DNA from: Verrucomicrobiota bacterium
GTDB taxonomy: Bacteria > Verrucomicrobiota > Verrucomicrobiia > Opitutales > Coraliomargaritaceae
Direction: 5' to 3'
NCBI GenBank assembly: GCA_039815375.1
Contig: JBCBZJ010000004.1
Coordinates: forward strand, 64,001 to 128,000
Length of the DNA stretch: 64,000 bases
How positions within the stretch are numbered: position 1 is the first letter of the stretch; each line of letters begins with the position of its first letter. Position numbers: made by a program. Shown piece after piece: positions 20,035 through 26,000 of this stretch.

Positions 20035-23000
20035 TAACTTCTCACTTTTTTTAATGACTCCTCGCCAACGCTTTCTCGCCGCTGTCCACCAAGACTCCGT
20101 CGACCGTCCTCCGATCTGGTTGATGCGACAAGCCGGTCGTTATTTGCCGGAATACCGTGCCTTGAAAGCGAAGTACGATTTCCTGACCATGGTCAGGAAT
20201 CCCGAGCTTGCCACTGAAGTGACGTTACAGCCACTGAAGCGCTTCCCGCTTGATGCTGCGATTATCTTTTCCGATATCCTCGTGATTCCCGAGGCACTGG
20301 GGCAGGGCTACTATTTCCGTGATCAGGGCGGTATTGGCATGGAATATCTAATCGACAGCCCGGAAAAGATCGAGGCTCTGGACCCGGAGAATATGAGCGA
20401 AAAACTCAAATACGTCGCCGATGCTCTGTCACTGACCCGTTCCAAGCTAGGCGAAGACACCGCTCTACTGGGCTTCTGCGGCTCGCCATGGACGCTTGCC
20501 TGCTACATGGTCGAAGGCGGTTCGGCAAAAGACTTCACTGCAATCAAACAGCTCGCGCTGGGGCAGCCTGAGCAATTCGAGGCCCTGATGCAGAAACTCT
20601 GCACCGCCATCATTGATTACCTTCATATGCAGATCGACGCAGGCGCTGACGCCTTGCAAATCTTCGACTCCTGGGGCTCGATTTGTCCGGCCAGCCATTA
20701 CGAAGCGTGGTCGCTCCGGTGGATTCATCATATCATCAGCGAGCTAAGAGGCCGCGCACCAGTGATCATCTACGCTAAAGGCATGGGTCATAAAGCAGCC
20801 GACCTAATGAACACCGGCGCAAAGGTGATCAGCATCGACTGGACCCAGAGCATCCGTCGCACCCGCCAGAGCATAGGTCACGCCGCCGCTATTCAAGGCA
20901 ACCTCGATCCCGTCGCACTCACGACCACTCCTGAAATCACCCGCCGCGAGACCCAACGCGTGCTGGATGATGCAGGCTCTGAACCTGGATTTATCTTCAA
21001 CCTCGGGCATGGAATGATCCCCAGCGCGAAGGTCGAATGTGTGGAAGCGTTGATGGAAACAATTACTGGTCAGGCTACAGTTTAGCCAATGCATTATCTT
21101 CCGTAAGCGCAGCCATCTTGGCGGAGAGCGCTTCGACAATGCCCGACTCATCGGTCGGATTAGATGCGATACAATTGACGATTGCACTGCCCACAACCAC
21201 GCCATCAGCAGTCTGTGCCACCGTCCTGACATGATCCGAAGTCGAGATCCCGAAGCCAACAACAACCGGCAGGTCGGTATGCCGCTTAATCAGTTCAACC
21301 TGAGCTGCAATGCCTTCGGACATACTGGCTTGCTCGCCGGTCACACCCTCACGTGAAACGTAGTAAACAAATCCGGTTGTCGCCTGGCAGATTGTCTCGA
21401 GGCGTTCGTCCGGTGTAGTCGGAGCCACGATGTAAATCGTCTTCAGCCCATGCTTTTCACAAGCCGCCAAGTGATCAGCTGATTCTTCGGGAGGCAGATC
21501 AAGTGTAAGCAGGCCGTCAACACCAGCAGCCTTGGCAGACTCGGCATAGGCATCGCTACCCTTGGCAAAGATGAGATTAAAATAAGTATAGAAAACGATT
21601 GGAATCTCACTGAACTCACGAACTCGACGCACCAGCTCCAACACTTTTTCACTCGTCATCCCGCTTTCCAGTGCGCGCTGTGCAGCCAACTGATTCGTCA
21701 AACCGTCCGCCAGTGGATCCGAAAACGGCACACCCAGTTCCAAAATATCAATACCCGAATCAATCAGTGCGCGGCAGGCCTCAACCGAAGTATCCAGATC
21801 CGGATCACCTGCGCATAGATAGGCGACAAAAGCAGCACGACCTTCTGCACGGATATTAGAAAAAGCGTTCTCGATTCGACTCATAATTGTGGAAAGTGAG
21901 AGTTGTTTGCTGAATAATCAACCAACAACAGGGCTCGCTCCAATCAGCCGTTCCGCACAAGCGCCTTTTCGATGAGCGGCAGCATCTTGCCCTTACGGAA
22001 GAGCGTGACCTGACCGCTACTTCCGGAAACGACAATGCAGAGGCAGTCAACTGCCTGAGTGATCGCAGCTGCAGCCGCATGTCGACTGCCAAGACCACCG
22101 GGAAGCTCGTGGTTGTAATTCGGAGCGTGAAGCAGGGACCCGGCCGAGACAAGGACACCGTCGCCGCGAATAATGAAAGCACCGTCGATCGAAGAAAGCT
22201 CCTTCACGGTCTCGTCCATGAAAGGATTCAGGATATTGCGATCTTCGTCCTTGTAGCCATAAAATGGATTCAGGATCAGCGGTTTGGAGAATTCAGAAAT
22301 CTTTTCTGCGTTGCCCAGAGTGAAGAGACAACCAACCGGATGACCCTCCCGCCCTTCTACGGCGAGCTCGGTCGCTATCGCCAGCACGCGCTCAATGACC
22401 TCAGGTTTAACACTGGAAGGCAGCATATCAGTCTTCGTCGTCAGCACAGTCTGGAACTCACGTTCGATGTCGACCACCGTAATACTGTCAAACTGGTTAC
22501 TCTGCGGGAGCCCCCCGACACAACAAAGACGATCACTACTGGAAAAAACCCCACGTGTCAGGCCAATCAGTACCGCACTCCGCAATTGAGAAAAGCGCTG
22601 ATTATTGAAAGAGCGAATGGGCAGCACGGCATCGATCTCTTCCCGCTCAGTTGCCGCATCGGAACTGCCGTGTGCAATAAGCACAGTCTTAAAGCCCTTG
22701 AAGTTCTTCCCGACTTCGACACCACCGCCAAAAGTATCACCAAAAACAAGAACGGTTGAACAATGCGCTCCTTTGGCGATCTTGGACGCCTCCTTTAGAA
22801 TAAGATTGTTAAAGCGATTATGCCGACGCTTGGGTTTTTCCGCTTCTCCGCCGAAGACGAGCTTTATCTCACGCCGAAATTCATCGAGCTTTCGAGCGCC
22901 CTCAAGCCGCTCCATGTGGGACTTGTCCTGAAAAACCCGAGCCAGGGAAGCAAGACTGTAAAGGTAGCTGCGGGCGTTCTTCGCTGCGAGTAGAAGGAAA

Positions 23001-26000
23001 ACATAGCGTATCTCCTGATACTCCTTCTGGCCGTCATAGTTCAGGCCATTCGGGCATCGACCGACCGCAATCATGTATGGTCGCTTCATCGCCACCCGGG
23101 CGTGAGGGAGACAGACGCCATTACCCAGGTAAGTCGTCATTTGCTTTTCGCGATCGAGCAGATCGTTGAGCAGACGTTTCTTCGACATGCCCTTTTCCTT
23201 TGAAAAATCACAAACTTTCAGCAGCTCAGTAATCGCTCCTTCAAAATCCGTGCTCTCCAAATCAATAACACGACTAAGGGCAATGTAACGGTCGATACGC
23301 ATAGGGTTGTTTAAGCTTCAGCAAAGTGTAATCTGAAAGTGAATACACTTACAAATAAGAGCCTTGCAGAAACTTTCAATAACCAACTTCCGTTCAAACT
23401 AATTCTCCCATTCGATCGCGCCTTTTTTGAGCTCATAAACGAGGCCCAGCACGAGGACGAAGAGAAAAAAGAACACGGGAAGTAGGATAGGTAATTGCAC
23501 CGCTAAAAACTCACGAAAGACCAGCACCCAGGGAATCAGGAAAACCACTTCAATATCGAAGAGAATGAAGAGCATGGCCGTGATATAGAATTTAACCGCG
23601 AACCGGGCGTGGCCCGAACCTTCGGCCAGCATACCGCACTCGTAAGGTGAGTCTTTGATCGCAGTCGGGGTGCCGCGTTGCCCGAACACATGCGAAGCCA
23701 CCAAAATGACTGCTCCCATACCGGAGGCAATGGAGACCTGAACGAGAATCGGATAATAATCTGCAATCGACATCTATGTTTGTAAGAAGTGGGCTTTATC
23801 GACGGTGACAAGGCGATTTTATCTTCTTAAGCAATTTTCAAAAAAGCAGATCGGATTTGCCAGATCAGTCGACCAAGCCGATTCTGCTCAGATCTGATGG
23901 TTGAAATCATAACAGATCTTTTCTGGAACACCTGGAGCCTGGTTGCAGTAATGGCACCTTATCTCCTGATTGGCTTTGCCATCGCGGGTCTACTTCACGG
24001 CCTACTTCGAGCCGATTTCATTGATCGCTTTCTGGGCAAACCCGGACTGGGCGGAGTTGTCAACGCCTCGCTCTTCGGTGTTCCGATGCCCTTATGTTCA
24101 TGCTCTGTGATACCGATTGCGGCATCGCTGCGGAAAAGCGGCGCGAGCCGAGGTGCGACAGCTTCTTTCATGAGTTCGACACCACAGACCGGAATCGATA
24201 GCATCATGGCGACCTACTCGCTGCTCGGTGGCGCATTTACACTCGTCCGTGTCGTCGTGGCCTTTATCTGCGGCATTGTCACCGGCTATCTGATCGAACT
24301 CTTCTGTAGGGAAAAGCCGAAGCCCGCCGTCCCGGATATGGCAAACCTAAGCTTCAGCCCAAGCACCGATGCAGTCGACACCGCATCGACCGATTGTTGC
24401 AGCGCGACCAAACCGAAGCGCGATTGGCGCGAATGCCTCCGCTACGGATTCGTAACACTCCCTGGCGATCTTGCTGGAGCACTCCTATTCGGCCTCTTCC
24501 TCGCAGGACTGATCACAACGTTCATAACCGGAGACCTACTCCAGGATTCGATGAGTTCGGGCCCCCTTGCCTTTCTCTTTGCCACACTCATCAGCCTGCC
24601 CCTCTACGTCTGCGCCACAGCATCGATCCCAATGGCCTATGCGCTGATTGCCGCTGGGCTATCTCCGGGTGCAGCACTGGTTTTTCTCATTACAGGCCCG
24701 GCCACAAACACGGCCACAATCGTGACAGTCTGGAAGATGCTTGGGCGTAAAGCCACTGCCATCTATCTCCTCAGCCTACTCGTAATCTCGTGGTTAGCCG
24801 GTGCACTTTTCAATGCATCTCTATCCACTGAACTTTCGGCGATGGCCATGCACCATGATGCGCACGACCACACCACAGCGGGGGAGCATATCAGTGGAAT
24901 TTTGCTGACCGGATTGCTTCTCTTCACCTTTGTGCGGTCTCGCAAAAAGCAGGAAAAGTCCTGCTGCTGCAGCTAAATTCAATTGCGCGACACGAAGCAG
25001 GCGACCAGCCTGGTAGCTTGCAAGGACTATTGGAACAGGTCGAAAGCTACGCCGGTGCATGGACTCCACTTGTTCTTGTCGCCATCTTCCTCGCGAGTTC
25101 GCTGTTGATCATTTGGCGATTGGAGCTGATGTCCCATCGAGGGGTCGGAGGCACTGTATTGGGCACGCTGTTCATGCCCTATTTCTCTGGTCTGGGAAAC
25201 TTGATCTTTATTGCCGTTCTACTTCAACAGAATGGACCAGCGGAAGAAGTCGCGATCAACTCATGGACAAACAACCTGACTAATCTCTGTCTTCTACTCG
25301 CACTCCCTGCCTTGATCTGGGGCCTTGAGTTAAGGCCCGACTCGAAGGCCCAAAAAGCTCAGCGCGAATCCAAACTCCATCGCCTCTCGCTGGGGCTTAC
25401 CCTCGTGGCGATGATATTTTTCACACTCGTGGTCTGGGTGTTGGGCCAGGACGGCGAGCTCGACCGCTTCGACGGGCTGACCCTGGTTGGGCTGTTTCTC
25501 TTTTGGCAGTGCTTCCATATCTTCGAGGTCTTGAAAGAGAATACCCGCGGCAATGCAGGTTGGCACCCGATGATTGTGATCGACGTGGCGCTTATCTTTT
25601 TCGCCAGTATACTCACTCTCTTGGCAGTCGATGGGATTATTAGCGACCTGCTCTCTCGAAATGATGGCTTCCTCAGCAGCAATAAGCTGGGACTACTCAC
25701 TGGCTGGCTGATGGTCCTACCCAATGCGGTGCTCGCTTTCTATTATGGATTCAAAAAACGAAGCGACGTCGTCTACAGCTCGCAAGTCGGAGATGGACAC
25801 ATTTGCATACCGCTCTGTATCGGCATCTTCGCCATTTTCGAGCCCATGCCGCTGCCTGATTTTTTCAAGGACGGCCTTCTACTTTTGGTCTCCATCGCGG
25901 GAGTCCACCTCGTCTGCGTCATCCTGCTGAAAGGGCTACCAAGAATAGTCGCACTAGGGATGATCGCAGTCTACGGCTACGCGATCTACGTGCAGCTCGG

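Follow-up and report, generated by a model that had tools for sequence, protein, structure and literature searches.

A predicted diadenylate cyclase with a fused EIIA-2 domain in Opitutales: a catalogued family with plausible control by a phosphate relay

The control of c-di-AMP synthesis is poorly known beyond a few Firmicutes, and the locus described here raises the question of whether a phosphotransferase (PTS) relay may act on it. The window, a stretch of 64,000 nucleotides from a Verrucomicrobiota bacterium of the order Opitutales (GCA_039815375.1, contig JBCBZJ010000004.1), encodes a cyclase in which a PTS EIIA-2 domain precedes a pyruvate kinase C-domain-like (PK_C-like) domain and the diadenylate cyclase (DAC) domain (Table 1). 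The survey's finding proposes that c-di-AMP synthesis is switched directly by PEP, EI, and HPr, which would join PTS-Ntr and c-di-AMP in K+ homeostasis in a manner both new and typical of the order. Its description of the protein was reproduced: each of the three Pfam matches lies above its gathering score (DAC, PF02457: 73.6 bits vs a cut-off of 27), the DAC match is the only one in a genome that is 99.9% complete, and His67 falls at the P-H motif of PtsN and IIA-mannitol chains with solved structures.

Table 1. Features of the cyclase locus (positions counted from the first nucleotide of the window).
Feature	Position	Strand	Remarks
dacD-type gene	21944..23302	-	ATG start, 452 aa; EIIA-2 / PK_C-like (DacZ_P) / DAC
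PTS EIIA-2 domain, residues 15-147	22862..23260	-	Pfam PTS_EIIA_2, E 7.7e-22
DacZ_P, pyruvate kinase C-domain-like sensor, residues 162-285	22448..22819	-	Pfam, E 2.5e-23, 82.5 bits
DAC domain, residues 314-440	21983..22363	-	Pfam, E 1.3e-20
His67, predicted phospho-acceptor	23102..23104	-	in GNGVCLPH, residues 60-67
Arg51, aligned with R-E of PtsN and IIA-mannitol	23150..23152	-	alignment
Tyr113, where PtsN and IIA-mannitol have their second His	22964..22966	-	alignment
DGA motif, residues 373-375	22178..22186	-	D373 and G374 invariant in 106/106
RHA replacing the RHR motif, residues 407-409	22076..22084	-	R407 and H408 invariant in 106/106
stand-alone nuoA-like gene	23399..23773	-	96 nt upstream of the cyclase, same strand
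trpA	21075..21884	-	59 nt downstream of the cyclase, same strand

The cyclase comprises three folded domains, occurs as a single copy, and has a strictly conserved catalytic core. In an AlphaFold2 model based on 106 sequences (pLDDT 84.5, pTM 0.60; a single-sequence fold with pLDDT 40.7 was dropped), the EIIA domain resembles EIIA(Ntr) 4gqx (Z 17.6, rmsd 2.6, 145 aligned residues), the PK_C-like domain pyruvate kinase 2e28 (Z 12.9, rmsd 3.3, 117 aligned) and AF0103 1vp8 (Z 8.3), and the DAC domain 2fb5 (Z 16.5, rmsd 2.6, 139 aligned) and DisA 3c1y (Z 14.7). No solved structure among the matches listed spans more than one of these domains, and excerpts of PMC10249747 describe the PK_C-like domain as one of unknown function. 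The linker (residues 153-160) is a low-confidence region and, with a pTM of 0.60, the model does not fix the domain contacts, which was counted against relay tuning. An artefact or misassembly was ruled out, all three domains being present in 120/120 top relatives.

The fused architecture is already catalogued, and the copy in the window is an ordinary member. Class DacD is reportedly drawn with an EIIA domain in the scheme of Corrigan and Gruendling 2013, and a scheme of 22 families (Galperin 2023) is reportedly the source of Pfam DacZ_P. The claim of novelty could not be upheld, since databases name both halves and class DacD, in the former nomenclature, lists Opitutae proteins: its representatives in the legend to Fig. 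A1 of Braun et al. 2019 (PMC6741144) come from Lacunisphaera, Puniceicoccaceae, Coraliomargarita, and Opitutae. The cyclase, a DAC protein from within these taxa, appears to correspond to this class, an assignment made by the taxa and identity of named relatives (Coraliomargarita proteins, 82-83% identity) and not by listed accessions. The cyclase was matched in 118/121 Opitutales genomes, in 115 of those 118 as the sole DAC, and full-length matches were found in 38/39 genomes of the order vs 3/162 other genomes of the phylum. The fusion is thus typical of Opitutales within Verrucomicrobiota, as claimed; left out of that account were full-length fusions in Spirochaetota and Fibrobacterota, the fusion being retained over the three phyla with few changes (four label changes on an 85-row tree). 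Divergent fused copies were found in 16 genomes, with EI in 16 and HPr in 15. Experiments on any DacD member were not found in the literature searched.

The DAC domain is the predicted c-di-AMP synthase of the order, where the cyclase would have a housekeeping role. It combines the DAC fold with DGA, RH, and a conserved Ser; S426 and several acidic residues are, like those in Table 1, invariant in 106/106 sequences, sub-1-Mb genomes included, and among the NCBIfam DAC models DacZ (NF041371) scores best (E 1.7e-34). Besides RHA for RHR, the (V/I)SEE motif reads VSGS, with Ser at position 428 in 100/106 sequences, and both deviations were counted against a relay-tuned synthase. They would suit an inactive domain or another nucleotide product, as would the metal-binding Glu that Listeria CdaA has at the matching place (excerpts of PMC7288161). 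However, the invariant residues, the PgpH-type phosphodiesterase with HD motifs encoded in the genome, and the best match to DacZ, an active class in the parts of PMC6741144 consulted, make such a loss or change of activity scarcely credible.

The proposed link to K+ found no support in the gene neighbourhood: no conserved K+ gene lies near the cyclase, and no ydaO riboswitch was found. A conserved K+ or nitrogen context was rejected, the amt-glnK and Na/Ca-exchanger-like genes near the window copy not being found in 21 other loci. At least 5 of these 21 loci also have a nuoA-like gene preceding the cyclase, and none has trpA beside it; neighbours shared among cyclase loci are nuoA, DUF362-like, TPR, dnaG, rpoD, mrp, and a WD40-like gene. 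A promoter and terminator scan gave no signal above chance on the coding strand. A Rosetta-stone comparison of 27 loci whose cyclase lacks EIIA, reaching up to 4 kb from each, found no stand-alone gene for EIIA, HPr, EI, or HprK.

The PTS inventory of the survey stood in that the genome encodes EI and HPr, both with His motifs, and shows no match to sugar EIIC (PF02378), IIB (PF02302), EIIA_1 (PF00358), EIIA-man (PF03610), or PRD (PF00874), the search covering these families but not others of the sugar PTS such as PF00367; it had overlooked a gene for HPr kinase (HprK). The two PTS_EIIA_2 matches are the cyclase and a Na_H_Exchanger-TrkA_N-EIIA protein (contig C2). The name PTS-Ntr does not fit: the EI(Ntr) of that system bears a GAF domain, and the EI found here is a general-type protein of 598 aa, covering model positions 1-554 of 565, with no extra N-terminal domain and no room for GAF. 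The cyclase itself scores 37.2 bits with the PtsN model TIGR01419 (cut-off 138.7) and higher, 44.2 bits, with the fructose IIA model, also below cut-off. Across the 121 Opitutales genomes, EI exceeded the cut-off in 100, HPr in 103, and HprK in 100, sugar EIIC being rare (5/121), with EIIA-man in 1/121. EI and HPr occur together in 97 genomes; a single EIIA-2 match was obtained in 68 of these, and in 65 it is the cyclase (57 with His67, 2 with Tyr, 6 not aligned). To judge from these sequences, an EI-HPr relay without a transporter seems to have the fused domain as its chief acceptor.

The active site agrees with this role in part. The domain has the EIIA-2 fold, a predicted phospho-His, and Arg51, which we take to be the conserved active-site Arg of EIIA-2 domains, but not the second active-site His, position 113 being Tyr in 98% of EI-positive copies and His in the 9 Spirochaetota copies. 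Arg51 and His67 are both intact in 77/90 EI-positive vs 2/19 EI-less genomes; only two well-supported independent pairs (four in all; sign test p 1) underlie this comparison, which therefore has no statistical power for EI loss against site decay. His67 alone is kept in 82/90 EI-positive (lost in 8) and 9/19 EI-less genomes. At 67 sites with at most two label changes in EI-positive rows, EI-less rows add most at His67 (4), then at Tyr113 (3), and none at 41; ranked by site rate, His67 is only 23rd among 99 slow sites, which was counted against relay tuning. The EI-less/EI-positive branch-length ratios (EIIA 0.284, PK-like 0.273, DAC 0.195) were counted in its favour, and the relaxation of the PK-like domain, as great as that of EIIA, against it. 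The EI-less genomes are all reduced, fast-evolving, and 90-95% complete; in five small genomes that keep EI (0.8-1.3 Mb), His67 is present in 5/5 and Arg51 lost in 3/5. The three copies that have lost the EIIA domain all come from genomes in which EI, HPr, and HprK gave no match. His67 is probably an HPr target, because the cyclase is the only EIIA-2 protein in most genomes with EI and HPr, sugar EIIC is rare, and the Arg51-His67 pair tracks EI.

A structural or small-ligand-binding EIIA domain with no PTS input would agree with its retention in 16/19 EI-less genomes, with the Tyr in place of the second His, and with the same fold in anion-exchanger cytoplasmic domains of non-PTS role (fold matches 7x1g and 1hyn). 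We consider this very unlikely: it would leave EI and a His15-bearing HPr without an EIIA partner in 65/97 genomes, and the fastest decay in EI-less genomes, at His67 and its motif, would go unexplained. The proposed input from EI and HPr into EIIA found support, whereas the word "switched" was too strong: no catalytic residue has been lost in EI-less genomes, so the unphosphorylated cyclase must be able to work.

A universal phospho-switch is contradicted by several lineages that have Tyr, Asn/Ser, or Gln where His67 would stand, EI and HPr being retained in some of them. In two genomes (G039, G101), a Tyr-bearing cyclase is the only EIIA-2 protein found, with EI, HPr, and HprK intact, which was also counted against; in family f28, a separate EIIA with intact R and H occurs in 3/4 genomes whose cyclase lost the His, which was counted in favour. 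The signal might instead be docking of HPr on EIIA, governed by the state of HPr (His15-P from EI, Ser-P from HprK) and not by phosphate on His67. The His-to-Tyr change occurred in two separate lineages (family f5, 4/4; genus g8, 4/4), with HprK in 8/8 and HPr in 7/8, and genus g8 lacks EI, yet hprK directly follows the cyclase gene on the same strand in 4/4 genomes (39 nt gap in G003). In 120 distant relatives, moreover, Arg51 (118), Glu52 (120), and Pro66 (120) are kept, but position 67 is His in only 82 (Gln in 27, Tyr in 6). However, this adjacency is one event in one genus, hprK, ptsH, or ptsI lies within 4 kb in 0/80 other loci, His67 is the best EI-tracking site, and no HprK match was obtained in three genomes of family f34 that keep EI, HPr, and His67. 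Docking as the signal is therefore unlikely, and may be valid for Tyr variants only.

His67 might also be phosphorylated while EIIA acts in trans, like PtsN, on TrkA and the antiporter; the fusion would then only place c-di-AMP synthesis near these targets, and a ligand of the PK_C-like domain would set the cyclase rate. As most genomes have no EIIA-2 domain other than the fused one, any role of the PtsN type must lie with the cyclase. According to the part of a preprint consulted (bioRxiv 10.64898/2026.08.14.744764), unphosphorylated PtsN is the binding form and controls YcgO and KdpD by binding. The linker of the model is flexible, and DacZ_P-DAC proteins without EIIA are common (27/80 loci), so the cyclase can do without the domain. 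The retention of the fusion across three phyla and the joint relaxation of EIIA and PK-like sites without EI, as expected of a coupled unit, argue against action in trans, which we regard as quite improbable.

We lean slightly towards a housekeeping synthase whose output is tuned by the relay. Phosphate would pass, on fairly strong grounds, from PEP through EI and HPr (His15) to His67, with HprK gating the relay at the HPr serine; the relay, ending at His67 with no sugar transporter to feed, would report the PEP:pyruvate state. More tentatively, the phosphorylation state of His67 may shift the EIIA and PK_C-like domains relative to the DAC dimer and so tune how much the cyclase makes, the two states being expected, by analogy with PtsN, to differ in intramolecular contact. 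Phosphate would be a modulator rather than an on-switch, and the targets downstream are presumably RCK-type K+ transport regulators, as in other bacteria; the genome encodes two TrkA proteins. We are evenly divided on the broader proposal that the EI-HPr-HprK relay is kept order-wide mainly to control c-di-AMP and that the state of the fused EIIA, the only acceptor in most genomes, directly sets cyclase activity, through phosphate on His67 or, in Tyr variants, through bound HPr. No case of central carbon metabolism gating a diadenylate cyclase via a PTS domain was found in the literature searched. If true, relay tuning would link the PEP:pyruvate state directly to c-di-AMP and give the transporter-less PTS of Opitutales a purpose. 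Four soluble proteins are involved, and naturally occurring forms with His, Tyr, or Gln, or without the domain, offer themselves as controls.

In the comparison with known systems, no structural difference between the cyclase and class DacD was found, the Fig. A1 legend of PMC6741144 being without domain layout. With DacZ/CdaZ (DacY; H. volcanii DacZ, M. jannaschii CdaZ) it shares solubility, the superfamily layout of a PK_C-like domain N-terminal to DAC, and the best DAC-family score; it differs in its extra N-terminal EIIA-2 domain, does not lie next to mscS, and reaches 119.4 bits vs the equivalog cut-off of 430 for haloarchaeal DacZ (NF041371). CdaA, CdaS, and DisA have the DAC fold, DGA, RH, and Ser in common with it, but the cyclase has neither a membrane anchor nor an HhH domain, carries RHA and SxS (GSRHAAA, VSGS) instead of RHR and SEE, and scores far below cut-off with the CdaA and DisA models. 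These three are regulated by GlmM/CdaR, by their own N-terminal domain, and by branched DNA, respectively, and we know of no phosphorylation input described for them. With PtsN, the EIIA domain shares its fold, the R-E and P-H motifs, and a predicted place as terminal acceptor in a transporter-less relay, fed here by a general-type EI, HPr, and HprK in contrast to the PtsP-PtsO-PtsN chain; unlike PtsN, it has Tyr for the second His, lies outside an rpoN operon, and is fused to its presumed target.

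The fusion of an EIIA-2 domain to a diadenylate cyclase is real, ordinary for Opitutales and already catalogued. The three-domain EIIA-2/DacZ_P/DAC protein described in the survey's finding was reproduced by Pfam profiles as the sole DAC of the window's genome (99.9% complete). Its GNGVCLPH motif ends in His67, which lines up with the P-H in structures of PtsN and IIA-mannitol; solved chain 2few, which we take to be an engineered phospho-site mutant, has Gln at this position. In the AlphaFold2 model (106 sequences; pLDDT 84.5, pTM 0.60), a disordered linker spans residues 153-160, and the predicted domains each have their own structural match, with Z 17.6 to EIIA(Ntr), 16.5 to DAC and 12.9 to the C-domain of pyruvate kinase, the PK_C-like domain being called of unknown function in a passage of PMC10249747. 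The PtsN analogy follows passages of bioRxiv 10.64898/2026.08.14.744764, and the DAC motifs RHR and SEE, both of which deviate in the cyclase, follow section 2.3 of PMC7288161.

Features of the window and of comparison genomes (G000, the window's genome; G, C and L denote genomes, contigs and loci)
Feature	Position	Strand	Remark
Cyclase ORF	21944-23302	-	452 aa
PTS_EIIA_2 domain	residues 15-147 of cyclase		Pfam, score over cut-off
DacZ_P domain	residues 162-285 of cyclase		Pfam, score over cut-off
DAC domain	residues 314-440 of cyclase		Pfam, score over cut-off
DTF loop	22730-22738 (residues 189-191)		after first strand of PK-like domain
nuoA-like gene	23399-23773		stand-alone, beside cyclase
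glnK-amtB pair	16076-17991		4 kb downstream of cyclase
CPA1 antiporter-TrkA_N-EIIA-2 fusion	G000:C2:12956-15256 (L002)		genome's other EIIA-2 match
hprK behind His-to-Tyr cyclase, genus g8	G003:C1:225625-227955 (L149:4781-7483); G116:C45, G083:C43, G100:C16		
Second DacZ_P-DAC paralogue	G051:C1:1270716-1271630; G245:C8:21764-22624		EIIA-less, ~30% identity
Cyclase match shared by two frames	G063:C36:37239-38584		break at about residue 62-66, from a frameshift or an error in sequencing

Among 121 Opitutales genomes, each at least 90% complete, 118 had a cyclase match (unbroken and full-length in 113, split in 2 and lacking the EIIA domain in 3), and 115 of these 118 carried exactly one DAC. In the phylum sample, full-length matches were found in 38/39 genomes of the order vs 3/162 others, which reproduces the distribution given in the survey. 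Outside this sample, among the best 80 of at least 575 loci, 53 were fused, including 9 from Spirochaetota that all kept Arg, His and the second His, and 27 were EIIA-less (Planctomycetota, Thermodesulfobacteriota, Armatimonadota, Nitrospirota and a deltaproteobacterium); the fusion also occurs in Fibrobacterota. The fused label changes four times on an unrooted 85-row PK+DAC tree, which is compatible with one old fusion and later losses, without proving it. The EIIA-less paralogues of two genomes group with non-Verrucomicrobiota forms.

The survey had cautioned that databases may already show the architecture, and JGI names of relatives indeed combine both halves. The fusion reportedly appears in the DAC classifications of Galperin 2023, He 2020, Commichau 2018 and Corrigan 2013. 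Class DacD includes Opitutae, Puniceicoccaceae, Coraliomargarita and Lacunisphaera proteins (legend of Fig. A1, PMC6741144), and because genomes of these groups have a single DAC, we infer that the cyclase belongs to this family; a passage of PMC12901056 gives 19 Verrucomicrobiota species with 'DacZ'. The passages of 10.1101/2025.06.19.660554, PMC13640721 and PMC10086821 do not mention the PTS, and full-text searches, with subscription journals and supplements outside their scope, gave no paper on PTS control of a diadenylate cyclase among the hits listed.

A relay that may feed the EIIA domain is encoded in the window's genome: EI (598 aa, His motif kept, without an extra N-terminal domain), HPr with both His and Ser motifs, and HprK, located after lptB at a contig end and overlooked in the survey's PTS inventory of EI, HPr, cyclase and antiporter. 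The absence of sugar EIIB/EIIC claimed there held for the families covered by profile searches, which gave no EIIC, IIB (PF02302), EIIA_1, EIIA-man or PRD match. Across the order, EI, HPr and HprK exceeded the cut-off in 100, 103 and 100 of 121 genomes, EIIC in 5 and EIIA-man in 1. A single EIIA-2 match was present in 68 of the 97 genomes with EI and HPr, carried by the cyclase in 65, with residue 67 being His in 57, Tyr in 2 and not aligned in 6. The 16 genomes with divergent fused copies had EI in 16 and HPr in 15. Three genomes of 0.8-1.0 Mb (G034, G080, G098) keep divergent EI and HPr, with His67 in the sole EIIA-2 and no HprK match, and may represent a minimal EI-HPr-cyclase relay.

Twenty genomes of the order with sizes of 0.8-1.1 Mb have no EI, and 19 of these have the cyclase. 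Cyclases were aligned from 109/118 genomes, leaving out 9 EI-positive genomes and, from counts, one paralogue. His67 was kept in 82/90 EI-positive vs 9/19 EI-less genomes, Arg51 and His67 together in 77/90 vs 2/19, and all three EIIA losses fall in EI-less genomes, which are reduced and incomplete. Over 106 full-length rows, His67 changed twice in EI-positive rows and four more times with EI-less rows, the largest gain among 67 comparably conserved sites; by site rate among 99 slow sites, His67 ranked 23rd and Arg51 10th, with several PK-like sites ahead. Extra vs base changes were 18 vs 17 at nine motif positions and 23 vs 73 at other conserved EIIA sites (Fisher p 0.005, for non-independent sites and a motif set picked after the site-rate result was seen). 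Since independent EI contrasts number only 2-4, no test of EI loss vs site decay can reach significance. EI-less/EI-positive branch-length ratios were 0.284 (EIIA), 0.273 (PK-like) and 0.195 (DAC), so EIIA and PK-like domains both evolve faster relative to DAC on EI-less branches. The DTF loop is a candidate ligand or contact site: it is conserved where EI is present, and where EI is missing it belongs to the sites that relax fastest. DAC catalytic residues are invariant in the 106 rows, EI-less genomes included, and phosphorylation therefore cannot be needed for activity. With the genome comparison it becomes more likely that His67 is an HPr target, which we consider probable, and that this tunes the cyclase, to which we give an even chance.

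His67 is lost in eight EI-positive genomes: in family f28 (Asn/Ser), 3/4 genomes whose cyclase lost His have a separate intact EIIA, and in family f5 (Tyr), another His-bearing EIIA was present in 2/4 and none found in 2/4. Among 120 distant relatives, 27 have Gln and 6 Tyr at this position, with Arg51 kept in 118; three of six named Fibrobacterota copies (P0142, P0190, P0217) have Gln. In genus g8 (4 small genomes), EI is missing, His is replaced by Tyr and hprK lies directly downstream of the cyclase in 4/4, a pattern suggesting that binding of HPr may be another input. HPr in two g8 genomes keeps His15, with Thr replacing the following Arg.

The K+ link proposed for the fused protein finds no conserved counterpart in the gene context of the window locus and 21 other loci. 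The glnK-amtB pair near the cyclase was not found at those 21 loci; relatives have a DUF362-like gene and nuoA upstream of the cyclase, in one case following further nuo-like genes. Elsewhere, the window's genome encodes a 7TM-HD protein of the PgpH type that has the HD motifs, two TrkA proteins and two further TrkA_C proteins; a search for a ydaO riboswitch gave none. The degenerate EIIA-2 of its CPA1-TrkA_N antiporter keeps P-H and has lost R-E and G-x-G; several relatives have similar long EIIA-bearing ORFs. This antiporter-TrkA_N-EIIA fusion corresponds, within a single chain, to the pair of YcgO and PtsN.
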